DNA of 22,062 nt from NCBI GenBank assembly GCA_002269645.1, contig NIVC01005197.1, forward strand, positions 1 to 22,062, written 5' to 3'. Positions 1-21,360 of this stretch are shown piece by piece. Source of the DNA: Macrostomum lignano (lineage: Eukaryota). Numbering within the stretch: the stretch's first letter is position 1; each line of letters begins with the position of its first letter. The position numbers and the translations under genes are program-made. Under the pieces are notes generated by a model, which did no database searches, was not told the origin of the DNA, and worked only from the letters and a program-made list of their open reading frames with translations.

Positions 1-1590
1 ATTAACACCGAGAATGCGCGCCCAATCAAGATCCCACCGCGTCGTCTGCCTCCCACTTACAGCCAGAAGTAGATCGTCAAGTCAACGAGTTGCTGGAAAA
101 GGGGCAGATCGAAGAAGCACAGTCACCATGGTGCTTTCCTTTTGGTGTGCGTAAAGAAGAAATCAGGGGAAATGAGGATGTGCGTCGATTATCGGAAGTT
201 GAATGAGGTCACCGTCAAGGATGCAGTGCGCGATGCGAGGGTCGATGATGCGCTGGAGGCAGTACACGGCGCCCAAGATCTTCTCGACAATGGACCTTCA
301 CAGCGGGTTTTGGCAAGTAGGGGTGAGACCTCAGGATCAGGACAAGACGGCGTTTGCAGTGCCGCATCGCGGACAATTTCGATGGAAGGTTATGCCGTTC
401 GGCTTAGTGAACAGCCCAGCAACATTCACCAGGTTGATGCAGCCGTTTTGACAAGCAGATGTGGAAAACCTGTCTCGTCTACATCGACGATCTACTGGTT
501 TGGTCAACCGACGTGGATGAACACCTGAGAAGACTGGAGGAAATATTTCAGCAAGTTGCGGCAAGCAAATTTGTGCCTGAAGCCCAGAAGTGTCACTTTT
601 TGCAAAAGCAAGTGAAATTCTCGGTCACACGCTGTCGGCTGCTGGCATCAGTACCGATGAGGAGAAAGTTCAAGAAGTGAAGAACTGGCCAACACCGCGA
701 TCCTCGACGGAGCTGCATTCATTCTTGGGCCTGTGTGGCTATTACAGAAAGTTTATTAAAGATTTCGCCGGCAATAGCAGCGCCTCTAACTCGATTGACA
801 ACAAAAGACGCAAGTTGAATGGAAAACGGAACAGCAGCTGGCGTTCGAAACATTGAAGGAACGAATGACAAGTTCAGAGGTTATGGCTCATCCGGATTTC
901 TCCCCGGATGCCGGAGAGTTTATCTCGATACTGATGGCAGTTCGAAGATGGGCATAGGAGCGGTACTTTCTCAAGTCCAGCCAGATGGAGCAGAACGAGT
1001 GATCGCCTATGGGTCCAAGACACTAAATCAAGCCGAACGCAACTATTGTACGACTCGTTTAGAACTACTAGCGGTTGTGACTTTCATCATGAAGTTCAGA
1101 TACTATCTGCTTGGAAAAGCGTTCTGTCTGCGAACGGACCACAGCAGCCTGCAATGGTTAAAAAATTTCAGTGACGCCGAGGGACAGGTTGCTCGCTGGT
1201 TGGAGAAGTTGGCTCCATTTCAGTACCGCATCGTTCACAGACCAGGTCGATCGCATGGCAACGCGACGCAATGTCGAGGAAGCCAGTACGGAGACATTTC
1301 GGAGGCGGAGACATGCCCGGCATGTGCGCAGCATCCAGAAGGACTAAATGCAGTCGAATTTGAACGATTCTCAGCCGGCAATCTGGCAAGCGAGCAGGAT
1401 CAAGACGACGATTTGAGAACAGTAAAGGAAGCGCTTGGCTCAAACCCAGTTCCAGATAAAAGCGAGACAGCTTGGAGTCCACTGGCTAGAGCCGTCTGGA
1501 CTCGAAAAGACGACCTGGTGCTGCAAGAGAACGTGCTCCTTGTGAGAAACAAAGACAGGCGCGATGAGTATCAAATGGTGCTGCCGAAAG
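1..1590 (+). pseudogene. pol: Gypsy pol: reverse transcriptase and RNase H, broken by multiple 1-bp frameshifts (decay or sequencing error)
   Basis: Motifs recoverable across frames: RPIKIPPRRLP, SPWCFP, KKKSGEMRMCVDYRKLNEVTVKDA, FSTMDLHSGFWQV, KTAF, MPFGLVNSPATF, YIDD (480-491), FLGLCGYYRKFIKDFA. RNase H: LDTDGS..GIGAVLSQ, ERNYCTTRLELLAVV, RTDHSSLQWL, RWLEKL, HRPGRSHGNA. Confidence 0.95.
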
Positions 1591-2917
1591 GCATTGGATC
1601 GTATCTTGAAAACCCTACACGAGGGAGTGGGAGGTGGCCACATGGGCTTTGCGAAGACAAAATTTAAAGTGCTTCAGCGCTACTGGCGTCCAGGATTGTC
1701 TCGTGCCATTGAAGAATATATTCGCGGTTGTGCCACCTGCTGCAAGTCAAAGCCGGGCAAGCGAAACCGAGCACCCCTGCAACCGTTGACATTCGCAGCA
1801 CCATTCGATTGCGTCATGATGGACATTGTCGGGCCGCTACCGCGGAGTAAGGCTGGAAACATTTATCTCCTGACAGTCCAAGATTCGTTTACGAAGTGGC
1901 CTGACGCGTACCCGCTTCGCAACCAGAAGGCAAGGACGGTGGCAAGGGCGCTTTTCAATCGATGGATTAGCCAGCATGGATGTCCGAGTACTTTGCACAG
2001 TGACCAAGGAAGGAACTTCGAATCGCAAGTGATGCGCGAAATGTGCAGGATACTCGAGATCCGCAAGTCCAGAACCACAGCTTATCATCCGAGCGGAAAT
2101 GGACAAGTAGAAAACTTCAATAAAAGTTTAAAATCCATCCTCAAGTGCTGCCTAGAGGACTCAGGACGAAACGACTGGGAAGAATTCGTCAGCTCTGCGT
2201 TAATGGCGTACCGATCAAGCGTGCATCGAGCAACGGGTTATACTCCCCACTACATGGTCTATGGCACGGAGATGCGCCTACCGATAGACTTGACTGACCA
2301 GCCGCCACAGCCTGTCGATTCGCATGTAAATTTCGTCAAGGAGCTAGAAGACAAATTGCAGACAGCTCATCGCGCTGCTCGACAGCAGTTGAATACTTAT
2401 CAGCGGCGACAGAAGGACCAGTACGATAAAAGAACCCGAGGATCCGATATTCAGGAGGGTGACCATGTCTTCGTCTACAGCCCCGCCCTGAAACCAGACG
2501 AAGCCGCAAAGTTTCACGTAAGCTGGCTCGGCCCAGTGAAGGTGCTCGAAAGAAGATCCGAGGTGCTCTTCAAAGTGGAAAACCCGTCAAATCGTAAAAA
2601 GTCGAAGTTCGTCCACTTCAACAACCTCCGGAAGTTCGCTCGACCGGCCGCCCTGGAAACACCAGTTAGGACCGCGCACCGCCGGAGGTGGTCGACGAGA
2701 CGGACTCGAGACAGAGGCGGAATGCGAGACTTGGACTCGGCCTCAACTGATGCCGCCACAGGACGCCGAGGAAGTCGCCGAGGTGCTGGAAGAGCAGATG
2801 GAGTTGGTTGACGACCCGCAGCCTACTCATAACCCGGTGGAAGCTGCACCTGAGCCTCGAAGGTCCGGAAGGTTGCGACGGCCGCCGGATCGCTACGGCC
2901 AGCCAGTGACATTCTAA
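1564..2917 (+). CDS. pol: Gypsy pol: integrase (HHCC zinc finger, DDE core, GPY/F-like region, acidic tail)
   Basis: Open frame 1564-2811 with H-EGVGGG-H...CATC, MDIVGPLP, HSDQGRNFES, AYHPSGNGQVENFN, ALMAYRSSVHRATGYTP and WLGPVKVL. After a frameshift near 2760 the tail reads ...PEPRRSGRLRRPPDRYGQPVTF* (TAA 2915-2917), a typical Gypsy IN C-terminal RRSxR..PP.RY motif. Confidence 0.93.
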
Positions 2918-2991
2918 TGGGTTACTCGTCATCGTGAAGTCTCATCAGTTTCATATGCGATTATCGTTAAAAGCCAGAAAAATATTTCGCG

Positions 2992-3096
2992 AATGCGTCA
3001 TTCATCATAAATACGAGTACTTCATCAATGCATCATTCATCATGAGTACGAGCAGTTCGCCAATGCGTCATTCAAGAAATTCGTTAATGCGTCATT
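2992..3096. repeat. Degenerate ~35-bp tandem repeat with four AATGCRTCATT cores
   Basis: Cores start at 2992, 3027, 3062 and 3086; the first two units also share TTCATCAT...TACGAG. Confidence 0.8.
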
Positions 3097-3340
3097 AAGT
3101 CATTTTAATCGCATCTTCATCGAAGTTTTGACGAGAATCAAATTTTGCCTACAAAATCTATGCATCGGTGGAGGGTATTCGGACTGGCATCCGGTGACAA
3201 CTCGAATTTGCGCTGGGACTTTACGATGCAGGGTACCGCGGGCCACGGTCCGAGGAGATGACGCTCTGGCAAGAGGGGAGCAGGAGTAGAATCTGGAGTC
3301 AGGGACAGTGTGTCGCAGGTTTGAGTACGTTGCTTTGCAG

Positions 3341-5041
3341 ATGGATTTGTACGCTGTCCTCCAAGTCGGACACACAGCCGAACGTGCCGAGATCAGGCGA
3401 GTCTATCGACAGCTAGCGCTCTTCTGGCACCCGGACAAGCACCCGGACAAGGAACTCGCAGGACGCCGTTTCCAAGAAATTGAGACTGCTGGTAGAATTC
3501 TATCGTGTCCATATCGCCGAGCGATGTACGACCAGTTGGGCGATAAATCAATCCCGTATGACGAGGCTGTAACCTTCGCAATGACGTTCATACCTCCTAC
3601 TGGTGTAAGAATGCCGGCGGACATCGAAGAGGGAGTACAGCAAAGGCGAGAAGTTGAAGAAGCTCAGCGCAAGGAAGCTGGTCTCAGGCAGGGGAGACAG
3701 GGACAGAGGAACGATTACGAAGCGGATGGCTACATTCTAATCTCGGACGACGATGAGAGCGAGGAGTCGGATGAGTGTAGCATCGACACAGAAGAAGAAG
3801 ACGAGTTGCTGGCATCGGATGGCTCCTCCGGAAGTAGTGAGTCAGAAGCTATGGAGATCGATGTACCGGAAAGCAAGGAGGTTGTCTCACATCGCGCGTC
3901 GGGAGCAATATGGGATGATGAAAAGCTGTCGTTATCGGCAGCTGCGCGTCAGCTCCGCCATCGTTTGATGAAGCATATTTTGGCTGGACAGTCGGACGGA
4001 ATCGTGTCAGTGCTCACGGCTATGAGACGGCTGTTTCGAGACTCGCAGCGAGAACCGAGGAGCGCACTGTCAATGGTCCTGCTGCAGGCGTTGTTCTTCA
4101 TCCGCAGAGATATCGCTCCGGTAAAGCGTCAGAGAGCAGGCCGCCGTTACTGGTCTAGGCAGAGTTTTGATTGTTTCGTCCGACAGCTCTGTCACGAGCT
4201 CATCCCGCTGTTCGGTTTGCGCCGGCCCGGCAGGCTGCTCGAGGTCCTGAAAAGCTGCGTCGGTCTCCCTGGACTTCGGGTTCGCTGGGGTGCCCAGTTC
4301 CGATTCATACTGTATTTTCTACTTACTTGTATGTATGTTGTTACGCTCGTACTGTATGGGTTTATTTGCATGCTAGTGGGGTCAAGCTTCCTGGGGGAAT
4401 GGCTCAGCAGCTGTGCGGCGGCCACGTGCGCTTCCTGCCGGCTTCTGCGGCGGCCACGTGCGCTTCCTGCCGGCTTCTGCGGCGGCCACGTGCGCTTCCT
4501 GCCGGCTTCTGCGGCGGCCACCTGCGCTTCCTGCCGGCTTCTGCGGCGGCCACCTGCGCTTCCTGCCGGCTTCTGCGGCGGCCACGTGCGCTTCCCGCCC
4601 GGCCATCTGCGCGCCTCGCCCGGCCGCCTTCGCGTCTTGCCGGCCACCTGCGTGCCCTGTCGGCCATCTGCGCGTCCTGTCGGCAACCTGCGTGCCCTGT
4701 CGGCCATCTGCGCGTCCTGTCGGCAACCTGCGCTTCCTGCCCGGCCATCTGCGCGTCCTGTCGGCAACCTGCGCTTCCCGCCCGGCCATCTGCGCTTCCT
4801 GCCGGCCACCTGCGTGCCCTGCCGGTTATCTGCACTTCCTGCCGGCCACCTGCGTGTCCTGCCGGCCACTTGCGCGTCCTGCCGGCCACCTGCGCGTCCG
4901 CCCGGCCACCTGCGTGCCCTGCCGGCCATCTGCACTTCCTGCCGGCCATCTGCACTTCCTGCCGGCCACCTGCGCGTCCCGCCCGGCCACCTGCGCGTCC
5001 TGCCGGCCACCTGCGATGGTTTTCTGTGGCGCCAGCTTTGA
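3341..5041 (+). CDS. J-domain (DnaJ/Hsp40-type) protein, intronless; protein-like to ~4270-4395, after which the frame reads through a minisatellite
   Basis: From ATG 3341: MDLYAVLQV..AERAEIRRVYRQLALFWHPDKHPDKELAGRRFQEIETAGRILSCPYRRAMYDQLG, a complete J-domain (3341-3541) with HPD at 3428-3436. Then an acidic tract and a basic helical region. The true C-terminus is uncertain. Confidence 0.85.
   Translation: MDLYAVLQVGHTAERAEIRRVYRQLALFWHPDKHPDKELAGRRFQEIETAGRILSCPYRRAMYDQLGDKSIPYDEAVTFAMTFIPPTGVRMPADIEEGVQQRREVEEAQRKEAGLRQGRQGQRNDYEADGYILISDDDESEESDECSIDTEEEDELLASDGSSGSSESEAMEIDVPESKEVVSHRASGAIWDDEKLSLSAAARQLRHRLMKHILAGQSDGIVSVLTAMRRLFRDSQREPRSALSMVLLQALFFIRRDIAPVKRQRAGRRYWSRQSFDCFVRQLCHELIPLFGLRRPGRLLEVLKSCVGLPGLRVRWGAQFRFILYFLLTCMYVVTLVLYGFICMLVGSSFLGEWLSSCAAATCASCRLLRRPRALPAGFCGGHVRFLPASAAATCASCRLLRRPPALPAGFCGGHVRFPPGHLRASPGRLRVLPATCVPCRPSARPVGNLRALSAICASCRQPALPARPSARPVGNLRFPPGHLRFLPATCVPCRLSALPAGHLRVLPATCASCRPPARPPGHLRALPAICTSCRPSALPAGHLRVPPGHLRVLPATCDGFLWRQL
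4414..5016. repeat. GC-rich minisatellite: 32-bp units grading into related ~20-bp units
   Basis: GCGGCGGCCACGTGCGCTTCCTGCCGGCTTCT recurs with period 32 (GCCACG at 4421, 4453, 4485...). After ~4595 the units are like CCTGCCGGCCACCTGCGCGT (20-21 bp). Confidence 0.95.
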
Positions 5042-5256
5042 TGTAAAGCCTATTCCGTGCCCCGTGGTTGCTCTGACGAACTTGCGTGCAGAAAACCAGT
5101 ATTTTTTTTCATATTTCTTTTGCGGCAACCATTTTTCTTTTTCCCCTTTGCATTAGTGTGTTTCCAATTTTTTTGTTGTTTTTGATTTTTTTGCTTTGTT
5201 ATTTAAAAAATTTGGAATCCCAGTCGCCGTGGTTCGAGCTCCGCCCTGTTTTTTTT

Positions 5257-5268
5257 AGGAGGGGAGGG
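5257..5268 (+). promoter_or_regulatory. Polypurine tract (plus-strand primer site) of an LTR retrotransposon
   Basis: T-run followed by AGGAGGGGAGGG, immediately followed by TGTAG; canonical PPT/3' LTR junction geometry. Confidence 0.7.
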
Positions 5269-5640
5269 TGTAGTGCATGCGCCCTTGTCAGTTGGCAGGG
5301 CGCGTTGCACTTTGGGGCTGGTTGGGGGGGTTGGCGGGCGTGGCGGGCGTGGCAGGGTTTGGCCGCCGGCCGGGCTTTGCGCGTGCCCCTCCCAGCCGTG
5401 CCCCTGCCCCGTGCTCAGGGCTGGTTGGCTGCGGCCGGGCCAGCTTTGGCGCGGGTGCTGCCCCTCCCCCCTTAGGCGGGGTTTTGATTGGCTGGGCCGG
5501 CGTGGTTTGTTTTGGTGAGCTTAGCCGGTGGGGCCGTCTGCCCCAGGGTTTGGGTGCTATTTATGGTGCGACTCTGGCTCTTGCCCACCTCCTGCGTGCT
5601 TTTTGTGTTTTGGTGTGCTCCGAGAGTGCAAGCGCGAGAC
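5269..5640 (+). mobile_element. Putative 3' LTR (right end not resolved, possibly interrupted)
   Basis: Starts TGTAG after the PPT. Contains GC-box-like GGCGGGCGTGGC repeats, a reverse CCAAT (GATTGG ~5486) and TATA-like TATTTAT (~5557). Composition switches abruptly to A-rich at ~5640. No second LTR copy is in the window. Confidence 0.5.
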
Positions 5641-5642
5641 CT

Positions 5643-5746
5643 GATAAATGAAACAGCAACATTAGCTACTTCGATAAAAGAAACAGCAACATTAGCTACT
5701 TCGATAAAAGAAACAGCAACATTAGCTACTTCGATAAAAGAAACAC
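5643..5746. repeat. 30-bp tandem repeat, ~3.4 copies
   Basis: GAAACAGCAACATTAGCTACTTCGATAAAA at 5650, 5680 and 5710, plus a partial copy at 5740. Confidence 0.95.
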
Positions 5747-5940
5747 AATAGCCTAATTGAGAAGAGTCTTGGAGAATTAAGAAGAAGTCGGAAACTGCGC
5801 TTGAGACCTGCGAATAATAAACGGTGAACAGTCATCTGGCCACTGGTAAGCCGCCTGCTGTTTGAGTCCTTTCTTTTCGGGAAGCTTGCTAGGCCGAATT
5901 CTTGCCAGAGCGTCATAACGCCGGGAGACCATATAGCTTC

Positions 5941-6203
5941 TGTAGTACGGTACCGTTTACCATATATATTGCGTACGCCCTACGGTATAGAGAATAGAAG
6001 CACTCGAGAGTGTCACCACACCTCGAGCCGCAGCGTGAACTCTGAGTGTCACAACACCAGAGGGATCGAATTATTATCGCAGAGCGTCGCCACGCCTGCT
6101 CGTCGTATTCATAAAAGTACAGACAGAGCGTCACAACGCCTGTTATATCACATATAATATATATTGTACTCGGGACTGGGCACCCAAGCCGACCCGGGTT
6201 ACA
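5941..6203. mobile_element. LTR-like fragment with TGTA...TACA ends and internal 15-bp repeats
   Basis: TGTAG at 5941, GTTACA ending 6203; repeated GAGYGTCRYMACRCC motifs. No target-site duplication found; boundaries uncertain. Confidence 0.35.
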
Positions 6204-6899
6204 ACAGTAGTGATGGTGGCTCATTTGATGGCCTAGTATAACTGTATAAATATGATTATAAACTCCAAAAAGATGCAGTTTTATGGTAAGCATGTAAAGG
6301 CCCTGTAATAAATCATCTGCAAGATCTTTATCGATATTTGGCCAAAAAATGTACAATCATCTTGTGACGAATATCTGGTCCGAGAGTTCGCATGCTGACG
6401 GACTGCTATTCAAGTAGTGATTGAACACACAGTTAGTGGTGACCGATAACTGACGGAGCCGATTATTCGATTACGGATTATGTATATTTGTAGGTTACAG
6501 ACACGAACGGTACATGTATATAGCTGATGCTAAACAGGTAATTGGTAACGAACAGCTGTAGTGTCGATGGAATGGCTTCGAAGATGACCTTAGTGGGAAT
6601 TAGTTAATTGAGAGCGATTTTGAACTACTGTTTATCAATGTTTACGGAAATCAAATTTGCTGGCCATAGGAACAGCAGCCGAACTCCATGTACGAGTTAG
6701 TCCTCTCCGAAGCCAAAGAATTCAAAATGTTAAATATAACTATTTCAATTCAGTAAAACAAAGCATTGTTTACTTTTGTCGATAAACATAAAAATGAAAC
6801 CATCTGATATTAATAACATACATATTAAATATTTTTAGTAGATATTAATCGATGAATTGAAATAATAAAAAGAACCACCAACGTACGTCACAATCTTAT

Positions 6900-8384: not shown

Positions 8385-8980
8385 GGTTTCAACCTACTTC
8401 GGCGAAAGAATTTTCGGCGAAAGTCAAAAACGGCGAAAAATACTTTCGCAATGACCATTTGTCTAAAGCTGACCATTTCGGCGAAAAATTTATTCTAAGC
8501 TTCGCTGAGAAGTTTTTTGTTTTAGAAGTAAGCTAAAAAAACGACGAACTTTAAAAAGACTAATTTTATCTTAGCATGTTTTTGTTTTGTCGCAGTTTAA
8601 TTTAGTTGTTTTATTAGATGCCCTTCCATTACGGCGGAATTTCAAAGTACGATTTTAAGAGCCTGGTGATTTAATCTGAAAAACCACACCGTCATCATCC
8701 CTAATCTATTGACTGCATATCGATAGATCGCATGTACATAACATAGCTACGAGCTAAGTCATGAGTTTTTTAATTTTCTAACTGCAAATAATTTGCAGCA
8801 ATGAACAATTTATTAAAAGCTATAATCACCAAAGTGGTATATTTGCAATATATACGTAGCCCATCTTTTCGCCGCACTGGTCACTTTCTTTCGCCGAAAT
8901 GTACATCTATTGAAACTTAAAATTCACTTTCGCTGAAGCGTCCTTCGCCGAAAATTCTTTCGCCGAAATGGGCTGCACCC
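8385..8980. mobile_element. Non-autonomous TIR DNA transposon (MITE), Mutator-like
   Basis: Left GGTTTCAACCTACTTCGGCGAAAGAATTTTCGGCGAA versus reverse complement of right end GGGTGCAGCCCATTTCGGCGAAAGAATTTTCGGCGAA. Multiple subterminal TTCGGCGAAA repeats on both arms. Flanking direct repeat TTAAATTT (8377-8384 and 8981-8988; 9 bp if one G is counted as flank). Confidence 0.8.
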
Positions 8981-11014: not shown

Positions 11015-12740
11015 CTATAGAGATACATATAAATATATTCTATTATCATGCAATATCCACTTTTATTCCAGACAAGAAATGAATTTTGAAGTAAATTTGT
11101 GTATTGTAGAAAATAGAAACCATATAAGAATGAGGTATTATCATCTTAATGTTATCTGGTATCAATTTAAAGAAAATAACTGTAGTAATTTTAGGAATGT
11201 CTACATTGAAAATTGCCAAAATTTGCAAATAGACAGATAGACTCTCACTTTGTATTTTTGTAAATGAATACCAAGATAGCAGAGTACAATTGAAAATGAC
11301 TAAATAGAAATAATAGATATGGCATTCAAATTGCAAGGTAAACATATACTGCTACACACAGATATTGAGATATAAATACAAATAGAAGTAGATAGATTGT
11401 GCTTCCTAATTATGAGTAAAAAGGCTTTCTAAGGTGTCATTAAATACAATAAAAGTATGCAATACCAGGATTCTTTTTGCTTTCTCCTAACCATGCAAAC
11501 TGTTTCTAAGGGTTCCTGTTCCTGCCATACCTATTGTCTTTTGCTAGCCCAAATAGGCATTCAAATATGATAACATTGGAGGAATATATTAAATACATTG
11601 GCAAAAACAAATTAGAATATTTATATGGATTACCAAACATTAGAGCTCAAAATATACACATAAGATCAAAATTGAATATCATTACAAGCGAATTCATCAA
11701 AGATTTTCATACAAAAATAAACAAACTGCTTACTTAAGTATGTTAGTTGGCTATAAATGGTAAAAACCCATATAATGAACTTAATAAGGTCTATACTTCT
11801 TTAGTAAAATCACAAGAACATGCAATAAAAAACTACTCTTTGTTTAGTATTTTTCTACATAATAACAAGTTTTGGGAACATTTACATGCTTATGAGCTGA
11901 GTAAACTTACACCTTACAGGAAATTTTGTGCTCATGAAAAAAGTCAAAATGTAACATCAATAGGCATAAGTAAGTAACAATGCATTGACAGTCGCAGATA
12001 AAACAAAATAACAATATTTAAAATGTCTCTGAAAGAATGAATCACTAAAGATCAAAATGTTTGGCGTTGTTTATCAGAAAACCTACACCTTACAGGAATT
12101 TTTCAACAGTAGACAAGTGTCATGCAATTAAGACAGGGCTAAATAAGTTCATAAATATTGAAAACACAGCCGTAAAATATCCACAAGCTCACAGATAAAG
12201 GTTTTCCCCTATATTTTCAGTCATTGTCCCATAGACAAAAATAGTACACGTACACAAAAGAGCGTTATGAAACAAAAAAACGTACTTAAAGTACAAGTCA
12301 GAAAAATACGTTTTCGGTCGCTATCGCCACGATAAAAGCATAAGCTCTGGCTAAAAGTTTAAAGACACATTTTTCAATCAGTTTTTTATAAATAAAAGTT
12401 AAATTTATGTACAAATACTTCTGGTTTAACAATTAAATTCATGCTGAAAGAAAAAATTTGTTTATAACTTACGTATATTTCAATTTGAGATTTACCCTCC
12501 ATAGTTCAAATCATATATTAATGTATGCCACAGTCCAATCAGTGGGGAAAAGCATGCTTTTGTTTGTATGCTAGGACTAAAAATATGTCATTAAGAGTGT
12601 TTGTGTTTCTACTATATTTGTATCATCATGTAGGCTTATACTAGGATGTTTATTAAAGTAATGTATATTGAAAATTGCTAATACCTCTATTGTAACTTGT
12701 ATGCCAGGAAATCCTAGCATACATGATATATGTCAATTGC

Positions 12741-13596
12741 GGTTCCTGGACACTTTGTCATCTTACCAGTTCGTCATCCAGATGATGAAGTGACCATGGT
12801 TTTTGGACACTTCATCATACAAAAAAATTGTTAGAAATCTAGATGACGAAGTGACCAAATTTTAAGGACACTTCGTCATCGCAAGATTTCGCAAAGCTGT
12901 AAAATTGTTATTCGATTGTTTTTTATATATGTAAATTGTTTCTCAATCAATAGTATGTAAAATATATGATTAAATACACGTTTAGGGATTCAACTTCTTG
13001 CTATAATTGGCATCTAAATGCACGCTATATGTGTACAAGTGTTGATTGTAATTTTATTATAGCTTTGCTTCCACAACCATGTGTGGAGTTGTAACAATGT
13101 AGATTTAATTATGTTTATGAATAGTGTATTTTTTAGTATTTATTATTATTTATTTTTTAAATTGTATTTAATTTTGCTATTCAGGTATGCAAATTTACAA
13201 TTCATTATTATTTTTGTTTCATTGTATGATTACAAGATTTTGTATGGTATTCAAAACCGCGAGTAGAATTTAATTTTGTACTGATCGCGATATCTTCTCT
13301 TCTCCAGCTCTTCCCCTGTCGTAGTTAATCCACATTAATTATCAGTTAGTTAATCAATTAGTTAATACTCAGTGTAGCCACCTATATTTATGACTACTCA
13401 ATACAACTTAGCTGACAAAGTTACATATAGCTATTCATTCAATAAGTTTTTCAGACAAAGTGGATGACGAAGTGTCCAGGGAGTAGATGACGATGTGTCC
13501 ACAATAGTATCGTAGATGACAAAGTGGTAAGATGACGAAGTGTCTAGAAATATGAGTGGATGACGAAGTAGTAAGATGACGAAGTGTCCAGGAACC
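12741..13596. mobile_element. Non-autonomous TIR DNA transposon (MITE), Mutator-like, 9-bp TSD
   Basis: Left GGTTCCTGGACACTTTGTCATCTTACCAGTTCGTCATCCA versus reverse complement of right end GGTTCCTGGACACTTCGTCATCTTACTACTTCGTCATCCA. Arms built of GATGACGAAGTG subrepeats. Perfect flanking direct repeat GTCAATTGC (12732-12740 and 13597-13605). Confidence 0.9.
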
Positions 13597-13729
13597 GTCA
13601 ATTGCTTTCTAAACTATAAATAGGCCTACCAAACAATGTAGTATTAGGGATATATCCAAAAGTTTCATTTTCAGGATAAGAGGGCTAGTTGGGGCCTAAT
13701 AAAAACTAAAGGGGCAATTATAATACTAT

Positions 13730-15832: not shown

Positions 15833-16639
15833 GTATGTTTTATTAACAGTTTCAGTTTTATTGCACTTCTAGGTAGTACAAAATTTTTAGCATTCAAAGC
15901 ACTGTTTTTTAGGTATGCTACTTACCAGTAGAGTGATCAGTGTATATACTTGTTTTATAGATTGCATAGTCTACTGGCCATGCCTGGTAAGTGCATATTG
16001 GCTTGTAAGTTAATGCTAGATCTATTTACAGTTGATCTGTGATCAGTTCTTTCAGTTATTATTTTTGTTTTTTAATTGAATTTTTATTTCGTCTAAAGGA
16101 AGTATTTTACATTTTTCTATCATTTTTTTCTTTACTTTACTTACTTCACCTTTCTTTTCTTGGTTGTTATTGACGATTGCTGTGCCCTTTAAGCTGATTT
16201 TTTATATCCTTAATCAGCTGATTTTGTTGCTTGAGTGCCATTCAATAGTTCAGCATTGCTGAAAGATCTGGACGCGAAGGTCGTACAGTCTTGGAAAGCT
16301 TTTAGCATGGGCCACTTAGATATTACTGCTTCTCTACTTTGAGTTCAGTAGTAATGAAGAATGTGTAAGCTATTTCATGAAAAGAAAGACAGTTTGGGAT
16401 GTCTGCACTTTTAGATGTCTATCTAACACACCCAAATATGTCTATGGCCTAACACACCCAAGCATGTCTATGGCCTAGACAGAGCTTTGACTTTGAGTTG
16501 TTCCTCCGCCCTCTTACTCCCCAAAAAGGTAGTTAAATTGTTTTGGAAACAATTAACAATAGTACATCTGCGCGTTGAACTATCGTGGTTTTGGGTTATT
16601 AATGATTGCTAGCAACCATAATAATTATAATAATTAATA

Positions 16640-17560
16640 TAGGATTTTTCGTTTGATTTCATGAAATTGTCATTTGATTTCGTCCATAGAAGTTGGCAGC
16701 GCGGCCATAGAGTCTATGGCAATAAAGTGCGCTGTTTTCCGATTGAATTCATGACTTTGCCACTTCATTTCGACTTGACGCGCGGAGTGGCTCAAACACT
16801 GCCAGAGGGGGCTGGGATATCAGTGGGTGAATATCTATGGCCAAACCTCTCATAGAAATGAAAAGCCTATATGAACGTGTCCTCTTGGGCAAGAGTCACC
16901 TTCCTTGTGTGCCTAAAAATGGCTGCATACGCGTCCATTGGAAACGTATAAACGCGGCCAATCGTATTCAACTGTGAACTAACTCTGCCACCGTACTCTC
17001 CATTTCTTAACGCCGCGGAGCAGGCACACAGTTGTCTCAAGGCTTCGCTTAAACGCCAGCTAGCAACACCTGAGCTTCAACAGGAACTTAGCTATCCGCC
17101 TGATGGCATCAACCTAACGCAGTGGAGACTCATGATGCTTTTCCGCTGCGGCTACGTTGCACTAGAGGAAATTTCCGCCGCGAAGTTCTTGCCTGGGAAC
17201 GACATGTGATGCGGTTTCTGCCCCTGTGCATCAATGAGCAGCAGATAATGTGAAATTTGTAGCTTGTTGCAGCGAACGAGCATTAACTTTGGCGGACATA
17301 ACTGATTTCACTGATTGCAACTGCCTACTTCCTCATGTGACTTAAATACACAGCTTTCTGTTTTTAACAGTTCTTTCTGTACTGGACAAGCGCATCGACT
17401 TTTCTGTTGCCTTTCTACTGGGTATGTCGAAATGAAGTGGCAAAGTTATGAATTCAATTGGAAAACAGCGCACTTTATTGCCATAGACTCTATGGCCGCG
17501 CTGCCAACTTCTATGGACGAAATCAAATGACAATTTTATGAAATCAAACGAAAAATCCTA
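16640..17560. mobile_element. MITE / non-autonomous DNA transposon with ~135-bp near-perfect TIRs (superfamily unresolved)
   Basis: 16640-16773 (TAGGATTTTTCGTTTGATTTCATG...CACTTCATTTCGAC) is the near-perfect reverse complement of 17426-17560. TAG...CTA termini flanked by TA on both sides. Confidence 0.9.
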
Positions 17561-18609
17561 TAATTGATTACACGTGCCCTAATGGGCAGATGTGCAACCG
17601 ACAGCTCAGCCGCAGCTATTGCGCGGCGCATCTGAAGGCTGCGTACGGCTGTAGCAACCATGCATGTAGGCAAAAGTGCGTGCTTCTTCGAAAGCAGAAA
17701 TTGAAGCGACTCGCCGCTTGTCGGCTAAACACTTAGCAAGGCCCATCTTTCTGACTTCTTCCGCAGGCGATTAGCTCTGCAGCATCTGCTTCTGCAAAGC
17801 CTTAAGCGCCTGAGCTCCCCGTGGATTTAGGACAGGGCCTCTTTATATAAATAGTCGCCTCTGGCTAGCAACTGAATGTCATGCAAAAATTCGAGCAGTT
17901 ATCATCCCATTGGATAGATAGGGGGTGCGGGAAGTTGTGGCCCGCCTGGCTTCGCTGAGTTCGCGCGTGCTGATGTGTGCGTTTTTTATTACACTCATTT
18001 GAGAGGCTTCGTGTGGCCTTGATTGGGTTAATTTCCCTGCTGGCTGACACTGGCAAATCAGACTCATTCTCTTCCTCTTGGCTATCTCACTGCTGCTGCT
18101 TATGCCTCTGGCCCGCCTGCGCTGTCCCATCAAATCAAATATCCAACGATGGAGCAGACAGGCGGGAAGCACAGACAGGCGGCTGTCTTGCGTCCCCCGC
18201 CGCCGCTGCCGAAGCTTCCGCTTGCCTTGCTCGGATTCTGCCTGCCTCCCTTGTCCAGTCGAGGAAAGGAAAGGAAATGAGAGAGATGAGAAGCTCGGGG
18301 TACCGGTCAGCTCTGAGTTTGTCCATCGGGCCTAACGATTGCTTCGCTTAACAACTTTATTATTGTTGTTGTACCCGTTATAGTCTGGTCTGTATGTACG
18401 GTCACCATTGAGTATCTTTTGAGTATCGGCATCCAGTAGAAGTTCAATTAGACATGATTTTCCTTAAACAAAGCCCATAAATTTCATGAAACCTAGCATA
18501 GATATGAACAGACTGAACTGCTAATGTAGCTACCGGGTTTGACTTTATTAATTAAAATCTTTTTAAACTGAGGCAGATTTAACGAAAAGGAATTAAAATA
18601 AAAGATTCA

Positions 18610-19090
18610 CCATGTCAACTATAAAAAGCCTCATGTCAGCCATAAAACAATCGCCATGTCAGCCATAAAACAATCGCCATGTCAACCATAAAACAATCGC
18701 CATGTCAGCCATAAAACAATCGCCATGTCAGCCATAAAACAATCGCCATGTCAGCCATAAAACAATCGCCATATCAGCCATAAAACAATCGCCATATCAG
18801 CCATAAAACAATCGCCATGTCAGCCATAAAACAATCGCCATGTCAGCCATAAAACAATCGCCATATCAGCCATAAAACAATCGCCATGTCAGCCATAAAA
18901 CAATCGCCATGTCAGCCATAAAACAATCGCCATGTCAGCCATAAAACAATCGCCATATCAGCCATAAAACAATCGCCATGTCAGCCATAAAACAATCGCC
19001 ATGTCAGCCATAAAACAATCGCCATGTCAGCCATAAAACAATCGCCATATCAGCCATAAAACAATCGCCATGTCAACCATCAAAGAATCG
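18610..19090. repeat. 23-bp tandem satellite, ~20 copies plus one degenerate flanking unit
   Basis: CCATGTCAGCCATAAAACAATCG repeated head to tail, with a recurrent G>A variant (CCATATCAG). Confidence 0.97.
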
Positions 19091-20661: not shown

Positions 20662-20708
<47 letters not shown>

Positions 20709-21360
20709 TAGACAGACAGGCAGGCAGGTTAGCAGACAGACAGGCAGACAGGTTGGCAGACAGGCAGGTTGACAGACAGGCAGGTTGGAAAGACAGGCAG
20801 ACAGTTAGGCAGACAGTTAAACAGGCAGGTTGGCAGACAGGCAGATAGTTAGACAGGCAGGTTGGCAGACAGGCAGACAGTTAGACAGGCAGGTTGGCAG
20901 ACAGGCAGACAGTTAGACAGGCAGGTTGGCAGACAGGCAGGCAGACAGTTAAACAGGCAGGTTGGCAGACAGGCAGACAGTTAGACAGGCAGGTTGGCAG
21001 ACAGGCAGGCAGACAGTTAAACAGGCAGGTTGGCAGACAGGCAGGCAGACAGTTAGACAGGCAGGTTGGCAGACAGGCAGGTTGGCAGACAGGCAGGTTG
21101 GCAGACAGGCAGGTTGGCAGACAGGCAGGTTGGCAGACAGGCAGGTTGGCAGACAGGCAGGTTGGCAGACAGGCAGGTTGGCAGACAGGCAGACAGTTAA
21201 ACAGGCAGGTTGGCAGACAGGCAGACAGTTAAACAGGCAGGCTGGCAGACAGGCAGACAGTTAAACAGGCAGGTTGGCAGACAGGCAGCCAGTTAGACAG
21301 GCAGGTTGGCAGACAGGCAGGCGGGCAGACAGTTAAACAGGCAGGTTGCAGACAGGCAGG
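20662..21360. repeat. (GACA)n microsatellite grading into 16-bp and 28/32-bp minisatellite units
   Basis: Pure GACA run at ~20670-20718, then GGCAGGTTGGCAGACA units and longer units containing CAGTTAAACA/CAGTTAGACA. Confidence 0.95.

Follow-up and report, generated by a model that had tools for sequence, protein, structure and literature searches.

A young Ty3/Gypsy LTR retrotransposon of Macrostomum lignano carries a third gene, ORF3, that encodes a J-domain and is maintained by purifying selection throughout a clade of related families. We put at about 45% the probability that its product acts as an adaptor through which host Hsp70 reaches a chromatin or silencing complex in the nucleus, keeping the element expressed. 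Linkage to pol, copy number, selection, domain anatomy and the single clade of carriers are direct observations. The window analysed here is the 22,062-nt stretch whose first lines are shown above. A preliminary description had noted a J-domain ORF between pol and the 3′ LTR of a Gypsy element in it; this arrangement is present, and was found far beyond one copy.

Organization and mobility of the element

The window holds the 3′ part of a family-A element (Table 1). The pol stop, the ATG of an ORF with a complete HPD-containing J-domain, the tandem repeats and the junction of polypurine tract and LTR all lie where the preliminary description had placed them. Pfam matches in pol are RVT_1, RT_RNaseH, Integrase_H2C2, rve and Integrase_p58_C, and the integrase has zinc-finger, core and C-terminal domains. 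This pol copy is broken by many single-base indels (23 gaps and 1 mismatch relative to the C1428 copy, in which pol is a single frame of 1598 codons). C1428 carries the same four bases on its 5′ side as well, which identifies the target-site duplication (TSD) in the window.

Table 1. Features of the element in the window
Feature	Position	Strand	Basis and remarks
pol, 3′ part (RT, RNase H, integrase)	1..2917	+	Pfam; stop TAA 2915-2917
pol-ORF3 spacer	2918..3340	+	contains 35-bp tandem repeat 2992-3074
Acceptor-like pyrimidine tract and CAG	ends 3340	+	abuts ORF3 ATG
ORF3, common 315-aa extent	3341..4288	+	reading frames and copy comparison
J-domain	3344..3532	+	PF00226, E 1.5e-17; HPD 3428-3436
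Acidic linker, predicted disordered	3701..3937	+	34% D+E
Unnamed five-helix C-terminal domain	3938..4261	+	alignment, model, HMM; basic loop 4124-4147
GC-rich tandem repeats, 32-bp and 20-bp units	4414..5015	+	length varies among copies
Polypurine tract	5257..5268	+	position identical in 10/10 whole copies
3′ LTR, TG...CA	5269..6206	+	ends ...ACAACA at 6206; matches both LTRs of 10 copies
4-bp target-site duplication, 3′ copy	6207..6210	+	flank shared with C1428 copy

The window ORF3 lacks a stop at 4286-4288 and continues to 5041, giving 566 aa. This length is atypical, as 23 near-identical copies encode 315 aa (13 copies), 344 aa (4) or other lengths (6). The 315-aa form stops at the position of 4286-4288, ahead of the repeats, which in this form are 3′ untranslated.

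All ten whole family-A copies have paired LTRs that are 98–100% identical and bear TG...CA ends, and families B, F and G have paired LTRs too. A 4-bp TSD flanks eight of the ten copies, each with a different sequence, and several copies sit inside tandem-repeat DNA. Behind the 5′ LTR, nine of the ten have a primer-binding site complementary to the 3′ end of host tRNA-Lys(TTT), a primer we take to be reminiscent of Osvaldo-like elements. The coding region comprises gag with a zinc knuckle and pol in the order protease-RT-RNase H-integrase (Pfam; families A, F, G).

Integrase lies at most 1.5 kb upstream of all 27 near-identical J-ORF matches; in the reverse direction, 26 of 29 near-identical RT matches have a J match at the corresponding place. 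Linkage of pol and the J-ORF, proposed from this single copy, thus recurs in multiple insertions with paired LTRs and TSDs, and the 5′ LTRs of whole copies match the sequence from 5269. A misassembly at 2920-3340, which the preliminary description had considered, is absent: short-read contigs run from pol into ORF3 with no joint between them (X2 record 17, X1 record 7). An assembly chimera is ruled out by these contigs and the independent TSD-flanked insertions.

Domain architecture of the ORF3 product

ORF3 is modular, with a J-domain, an acidic linker, an unnamed five-helix domain and family-specific extra domains. Residues 2–64 of the window ORF3 match the Pfam DnaJ family (PF00226) with 63.9 bits (cut-off 27.8); a word-based protein search seeded with this ORF found no more than 4 J-domain matches, all of them weak. 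The J-domain model (pLDDT >90) superposes on the DNAJB8 J-domain (2dmx) with Z 10.1 and rmsd 3.6 over 75 residues, and the closest PDB sequence matches are J-domains of the DNAJB2/B8/B6 type. In families A, B, F, G and H, PF00226 exceeds its cut-off and HPD stands between helices II and III. The motif is retained in families A, B, F, G, H and I as well as in five outside relatives; in family K it is lost, and PF00226 reaches 18 bits. Six similar proteins exist beyond the loci examined. Given the intact HPD and the predicted fold, the J-domain is likely to recruit and stimulate Hsp70.

Only PF00226 matched ORF3 in Pfam; neither a G/F-rich region nor the DnaJ_C client domain was found, in a scan that did match DnaJ_C in the host class B gene L067. 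By domain content, ORF3 is not a class A or B DnaJ (Hsp40 proper). No env family matched the 315-aa ORF3, which begins with the J-domain, and by Pfam the element is not an env-bearing Gypsy (errantivirus).

The five-helix domain (model pLDDT 90.8, pTM 0.83) gives HMM matches in all seven ORF3 families, and alignment shows its arginine-rich, basic loop to be conserved in all of them. It is found only in these elements and in no host gene. Foldseek against the PDB and viral models returned no match at E≤0.001; the best structural Z, 8.0, is a level common for helical bundles and carries no inference on fold novelty. Sequence-profile matches are mostly designed proteins, and an Atlas search gave no usable match. 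A metagenome scan with P0010 found no match, and one with alignment A5 yielded 80 loci, all of them ordinary DnaJ and none (0/80) with the helical domain or Gypsy pol. Complex prediction for this domain and Gag residues 26–196, run without alignments, scored 0.00 and gave no answer.

Family G carries a chromodomain at the site of the acidic linker. Pfam Chromo (cut-off 25.1) scores 47.7 bits in G, 48.7 in P0008 and 29.2 in G2, and the best PDB matches are Swi6/HP1. The domain is limited to the G lineage and absent from six of the seven families. Pol of A, F and G has no Chromo match, the match in G lying in ORF3; lacking a chromodomain at the integrase C-terminus, the element is by this measure not a chromovirus. 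At the presumed aromatic-cage positions, G and P0008 are aromatic at two of three, the third being aliphatic (V or L versus Y/F); G2 is aromatic at all three.

Families I and K carry a TatD-like domain (PF01026, cut-off 27: 32 bits in I, 21.6–22.4 in K) with weak PDB matches that, among natural chains, are TatD proteins only. The central strand is still followed by Glu; the next His is replaced in both families, and the late Glu-Thr-Asp in K. These residues are presumed to have metal-binding or catalytic roles. The module would be a second nucleic-acid-binding add-on and is probably non-catalytic.

Phylogeny, selection and exchange of ORF3

The seven divergent families with ORF3 (A, B, F, G, H, I, K) form one RT-RNaseH branch with support of 100/100, in a tree that also took in 7 rows without ORF3, placed outside this branch. 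Eight of 30 clade rows have no ORF3 piece in the stretch examined, including the whole family L096/L097/L109, and related Gypsy families without ORF3 exist. In the J-domain tree (59 rows, 73 columns, 1 starred branch), a single clade of element J-domains was not rejected (p-AU 0.87), and none of the 10 host paralogues included was a supported sister.

ORF3 is under purifying selection. Comparison among copies, as the preliminary description had suggested, yields dN/dS of 0.18–0.28 between subfamilies (A/A2 0.18; B/B2 0.22; B/B3 0.21; F/F2 0.28; G/G2 0.27), at near-saturated dS; the J-domain gives 0.12–0.18 and the chromodomain 0.24. Within family A the variant ratio is 0.61 (12 synonymous, 22 non-synonymous and 1 stop change in 24 copies, assembly errors included). 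In family K, which numbers about 18 copies, the J-like region has 5 synonymous changes and 1 non-synonymous one and looks constrained despite the loss of HPD, which implies that Hsp70 stimulation is dispensable in one branch.

ORF3 is exchangeable against pol. Between A and A2, dS in pol is 0.14–0.19, compared with 1.2 for ORF3. In the G/G2 pair, gag and RT are 87–96% alike, yet the 5′ part of ORF3 is about 75% alike or unalignable. Elements with near-identical pol, and in the case of G/G2 also near-identical gag, thus carry ORF3 versions that are about 30% apart in protein. Such exchange is easier to reconcile with a client on the host side than with a protein co-adapted to the element. Both recombinants, A2 and G2, are broken copies, and each probably reflects one event.

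Expression signals

ORF3 had been described as intronless. Its body indeed contains no intron, but an acceptor-like pyrimidine-CAG lies immediately 5′ of the ATG, which suggests spliced and unspliced RNAs. AG also directly precedes the ORF3 ATG in A2, B, B2, G and G2, against 8.6% of background ATGs. No spliced form, joint or loose end appears in the contigs of four runs, a type of data that cannot show splicing level or strand; of the 19 runs containing the stretch, none is recorded as RNA. Trans-splicing with a leader-supplied start codon was considered and set aside: for I/I2 it would be out of frame, provided that the leader has a complete AUG as its end. The frame of I/I2 would call for an upstream exon with A as its last base. 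In four of four families, the best pairing partner of the last 45 nt of the LTR is located no more than 91 nt from the ORF3 stop.

No canonical heat-shock element (HSE) was found in the scanned LTRs of families A, B, F and G, and the sole family-A match lies within pol. A heat-shock promoter link was rejected on this basis.

Proposed function and alternatives

In the adaptor reading, ORF3 would be translated from a spliced subgenomic RNA, as the acceptor-like site suggests, and its J-domain would stimulate Hsp70 through HPD. The client would be picked by the helical domain with its basic loop, by the acidic linker and, in G, by the HP1-like chromodomain. Hsp70 might then dismantle the client complex, much as the SV40 T-antigen J-domain acts on Rb-E2F; J-domain-driven disruption of complexes has this precedent (PMC7356129). 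The chromodomain in G, P0008 and G2, the acidic linker and the conserved basic loop are pointers to the nucleus and chromatin. Several observations count against this reading, namely the restriction of the chromodomain to the G lineage, the aliphatic cage position in G and P0008, the HPD-less family K, the rows without ORF3, the internal ratio of only 0.61 in family A, the broken state of A2 and G2 and the lack of a spliced form in the contigs of four runs.

The preliminary description had proposed two jobs for the J-domain, particle folding and remodelling of a silencing complex. Chromatin or silencing-complex remodelling seems to fit the chromodomain and TatD-like add-ons of sister families better. 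We consider it rather unlikely that ORF3 is a chaperone adaptor for the element's own machinery, directing Hsp70 to Gag particles as they assemble or uncoat, or to the integrase-DNA complex once strand transfer has taken place. Conservation of HPD, the exclusivity of the helical domain to these elements and the finding that polyproteins from 11 families of RNA viruses contain J-domains, with folding or virion assembly as the proposed role (bioRxiv 10.1101/2022.02.15.480533), would suit such a role; the exchange of ORF3 behind near-identical pol and gag, add-ons unexpected for a particle chaperone and related Gypsy families entirely without ORF3 argue against it. More doubtful is a Rev/CERV-like RNA factor, whose basic helical domain would bind unspliced element RNA while the J-domain reshapes the RNP so that it can be exported or packaged. 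Cer1 produces such a protein from spliced mRNA (PMC10309623), and the acceptor-like site, the arginine-rich loop conserved in all families and the LTR pairing near the ORF3 stop are consistent with it, whereas no RNA-binding fold was recognised, the chromodomain suggests chromatin and no splicing was seen in the contigs of four runs.

Steering of integration in trans, the role of the integrase-fused chromodomain in chromoviruses, is improbable: the HP1-like chromodomain of G and the copies within tandem-repeat DNA would agree with it, but six of the seven families lack the domain and the J-domain stays unexplained. We give almost no credence to a functionless J-ORF, whether it arose by passive capture of a retrocopied host DnaJ gene or is a chimera of the assembly, although the window copy is indel-rich and has lost its ORF3 stop, and public gene models label these ORFs host 'J domain-containing proteins'. 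Passive capture is ruled out by dN/dS far below 1 over near-saturated dS, TSD-flanked independent insertions, joint-free bridging short-read contigs and a clade of seven families whose helical domain occurs in no host gene.

The adaptor reading can be extended, tentatively and with the odds against it, to an old Gypsy lineage with a modular chaperone-hijacking counter-defence. The J-domain, with an HP1-mimicking chromodomain or the helical domain, would aim Hsp70 at heterochromatin or small-RNA silencing, and cassette swaps and an HPD-less decoy would be marks of an arms race. If true, no earlier transposon would have been shown to turn the disaggregating chaperone of its host against silencing.

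Few animal retrotransposons are known to encode host-acting proteins other than Gag, Pol and Env. In the present case young multi-copy elements carry, across a clade, a J-domain gene under selection whose chromatin-reader and nuclease-like modules are interchangeable, and the unnamed helical domain offers a handle on the client. Since transgenesis and RNAi are available in the host animal, resistance of a transposon to silencing becomes directly testable. Several database 'J domain-containing proteins' of Macrostomum lignano are transposon genes.

Comparison with known systems

No Gypsy element with J-domain cargo was found in the literature searched. HSE-bearing LTR families of Macrostomum lignano (PMC12801592) likewise tap the heat-shock system in the same host. 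They do so through promoter motifs, and their main text does not mention ORF3, DnaJ, chromodomain or TatD; in contrast, the examined LTRs of A, B, F and G have no canonical HSE. Chromoviruses and EpiLTRs (bioRxiv 10.64898/2026.05.21.726589) are LTR elements that combine a chromodomain with other chromatin-related modules. The family G chromodomain lies instead in ORF3, not at the integrase C-terminus, with no methyltransferase, and 'DnaJ' occurs 0 times in that preprint. Cer1 CERV of C. elegans is a Gypsy-type nuclear accessory protein from spliced mRNA; compared by description only, it differs in that its abstract does not mention a J-domain (PMC10309623).

Polyomavirus T antigen (PMC7356129) and RNA virus polyproteins (bioRxiv 10.1101/2022.02.15.480533) share with ORF3 a parasite-encoded J-domain ahead of client-binding parts. 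ORF3 differs in forming an ORF of its own in an endogenous LTR retrotransposon, rather than part of a replicase or polyprotein; its best sequence matches are cellular DNAJB-type J-domains, and its Hsp70 stimulation is a prediction. Additional ORFs occur in plant Ty3/Gypsy elements (PMC7264820), and an AlkB-type ORF in orchid Gypsy elements (PMC9289625). Like these, the bdelloid Juno/Vesta elements place between pol and the 3′ LTR a family-specific, modular additional gene, usually expressed from spliced RNA, with a GDSL lipase or DEDDy exonuclease as cargo (PMC5408684). 'DnaJ' appears 0 times in that source, and what sets the present ORF3 apart from such accessory genes is its predicted Hsp70 co-chaperone domain, joined to an unnamed helical domain.

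Results

The copy of the Ty3/Gypsy element in the window has the layout proposed in the preliminary description: a pol stop, a J-domain reading frame (ORF3) containing the HPD motif, tandem repeats and a PPT/TG junction, all of which were recovered.

Features of the element copy in the window
Feature	Position or length	Basis
3′ part of Ty3/Gypsy element	first 6.2 kb	RT, RNase H and integrase pieces (Pfam)
pol stop	ends 2917	reading frames
Spacer between pol and ORF3	423 bp	
ORF3 with DnaJ domain	ATG 3341	Pfam DnaJ, 63.9 bits
HPD motif	3428-3436	
Tandem repeats	4414-5015	
Purine tract	5257-5268	
LTR	5269-6206	

The window covers bases 1-22062 of contig C5197 in the source assembly (G000). Its element copy and that on contig C1428 are one and the same insertion, with 99.66% identity over 7.3 kb, flank included (1 mismatch, 23 gaps). 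Errors of assembly, or a redundant haplotype, therefore seem to account for the pol frameshifts of the window copy. ORF3 ends at 315 aa in 13 of 23 near-identical copies, and the window ORF3 has no stop at this usual end, continuing to 566 aa. Elsewhere in the window, an element at 16638-17562 has 137-bp terminal inverted repeats (98% alike) and an 85-aa frame, which we take to be reminiscent of a Tc1/mariner DDE segment; the frame has no Pfam match. Two smaller inverted-repeat elements (8385-8980 and 12740-13597) are MITE-like, and minisatellites with 23-bp and 8/16-bp units occupy 18632-19090 and 20662-21332.

ORF3 is part of the element. A J-domain search of G000 (150 scored among 207 candidates) gave at least 142 matches, at least 27 of them with 84-100% identity, these being copy counts and not insertion counts because the assembly contains duplicates. 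The window integrase aligns directly upstream in 27/27 of these close matches. Conversely, a J match lies at the corresponding place for 26 of 29 RT matches with at least 96% identity, the other three being truncated, interrupted or deleted. The J-ORF is thus multi-copy and pol-linked, and paired LTRs with target-site duplications, by which the preliminary description would have recognized independent insertions, are likewise present: all ten family-A copies fetched whole (the family of the window copy) have two LTRs 98-100% identical, a 4-bp TSD flanks eight of them, no two of these TSDs being alike, and pol is a single open frame in five. The family-A primer site is complementary to host tRNA-Lys(TTT). 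Misassembly at the pol-ORF3 junction is countered by contigs of four public runs (four studies), which cover pol and ORF3, bridge the spacer singly and list no joint between the two; since the runs are only presumed to be RNA, these contigs bear on linkage and not on expression. At the family-A gag-pol junction (L043:3931-4679 and equivalents), an array of 13-47 tandem 30-bp units is open in several frames and encodes a proline-rich spacer before the protease.

ORF3 is also a clade-wide gene. Among 20 weaker J matches fetched with 7 kb upstream, eight have Gypsy pol ahead on the same strand (families B, F and G), one (L053) has the ORF without pol, and 11 resemble host DnaJ genes; families H, I and K came from sampling led by RT. 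Of the 37 rows in a midpoint-rooted RT-RNase H tree, 30 group on a single branch (100/100), where 22 show at least a piece of ORF3 and eight show none in the stretch fetched; the seven outside rows have no J or helical-domain match. Matches number at least 27 in A, about 27 in G, 20 in F, about 18 in K and 6 in B, all lower bounds. Between families, identity is 41-46% in the J-domain and about 29% in the C-terminal part, against 68-73% in RNase H. The primer-binding site of family G (L060, L061) is unlike that of A, B and F despite the shared clade. In an H-family locus (L087, G000 C506) and in protein P0156, an internal deletion has joined RT-RNase H and the J-ORF into one frame, and in three I-type pol copies (L098, L099, L113) the TatD-like module is reduced to its 3′ part.

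In the structure predicted for family A, a confident J-domain is followed by a long helix, a disordered acidic linker and a C-terminal domain of five helices (pLDDT 90.8 modelled alone), for which structure searches returned no outstanding fold match. Among the loci and searches of this analysis the helical domain is restricted to element ORF3s, and alignment places a basic loop in it in all families. Family G has an HP1/Swi6-like chromodomain inserted in the linker; families I and K have an appended TatD-like domain in which key catalytic residues are absent, and K has lost the HPD. Two copies of subfamily G2, L071 (7130-7770; G000 C455) and L072, are without RNase H and integrase. In these copies J-domain and chromodomain are separated by an AT-rich stretch of about 600 bp, either an intron or an insertion, that ends in a pyrimidine tract and ACAG.

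Among 1.84 billion representatives, a profile search returned nine proteins at E<=1e-30. Two are M. lignano gene models (UniRef) that match families A and H at 94-100% identity over long segments. The J and helical-domain build recurs in proteins that come from Logan and JGI/IMG, namely P0007, P0008, P0009, P0010, P0011 (with P0155 in its cluster) and the fragment P0097, with 34-76% identity to the best locus among those fetched; P0008 carries a chromodomain besides. NCBI/UniRef already lists the family-G protein under the host, as hypothetical or as J domain-containing.

The comparison of dN/dS among copies foreseen in the preliminary description (Nei-Gojobori counts per aligned segment) indicates that ORF3 is under selection. 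Ratios are 0.18 for A/A2 (300 codons, dS 1.2), 0.22 for B/B2, 0.21 for B/B3, 0.28 for F/F2 and 0.27 for G/G2; two H copies give 0.36 and two K copies 0.32, and the J-domain gives 0.12-0.18 in deep pairs. The values are rough because these deep pairs approach saturation. The few variants inside family A yield a ratio of 0.61. Pol is common to A and A2 (dS 0.14-0.19) and ORF3 is not, and G and G2 follow this pattern, with gag and RT alike and ORF3 diverged; lineages have therefore exchanged ORF3, although both cases are broken copies.

An AG immediately precedes the ORF3 ATG in A, A2, B, B2, G and G2 (background, 90 of 1045 ATGs); in F, H and K the AG is a few bases further from the start codon, on its upstream side. 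Families I and I2 have no ATG and show pyrimidine-GCAG followed by TG in the 4/4 copies listed, as if the A of the start codon came from an upstream exon. The acceptor-like AG suggests a spliced, env-like mRNA, of which the contigs of the four runs gave no example; excerpts of PMC5408684 describe splicing as typical of ORF3s. At the other end of the gene, window 4277-4303 is 85% complementary to 6170-6196, late in the LTR. In 4/4 families, with unrelated sequences, the last 45 nt of the LTR find their best partner no more than 91 nt from the ORF3 stop; shuffles that reached the pairing score, per 200, numbered 0 in A, 9 in B, 47 in F and 50 in G. Such pairing might act at long range to circularise the genomic RNA.

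Discussion

J-domains bring Hsp70 to a client selected by the rest of the protein. SV40 T antigen disrupts Rb-E2F by such delivery, according to excerpts of PMC7356129. In the HPD-bearing families, ORF3 probably recruits Hsp70. We rank first a nuclear client, with ORF3 delivering Hsp70 to chromatin or a silencing complex (probability roughly 0.45), because putative chromatin-reading or nuclease-like modules accompany an acidic linker and a basic loop in a cassette that moves independently of Gag/Pol. Against such a client, the chromodomain is confined to one lineage, its aromatic cage is incomplete in G, HPD is dispensed with in family K, and ORF3 appears to be missing from one family of the clade. 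Delivery to the element's own particle or intasome is a less likely alternative, and a role in RNA export is more doubtful still.

The preliminary description knew of no Gypsy lineage with a DnaJ ORF, and this holds within the full-text literature searched, where a J-domain ORF turned up in no LTR element; that coverage did not extend to the repeat collections Repbase, Dfam and GyDB, to subscription papers, to supplements of preprints or to the earlier classification, cited in PMC12801592, of host LTR elements, where the ORF may be mentioned. In the portions of the text and supplements of PMC12801592 searched, DnaJ appears among host transcripts only. The J-domain gene is real, clade-wide and selected, and apparently undescribed. 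Within the known kind of Gypsy ORF3, an ORF3 with a J-domain represents a new type of cargo.
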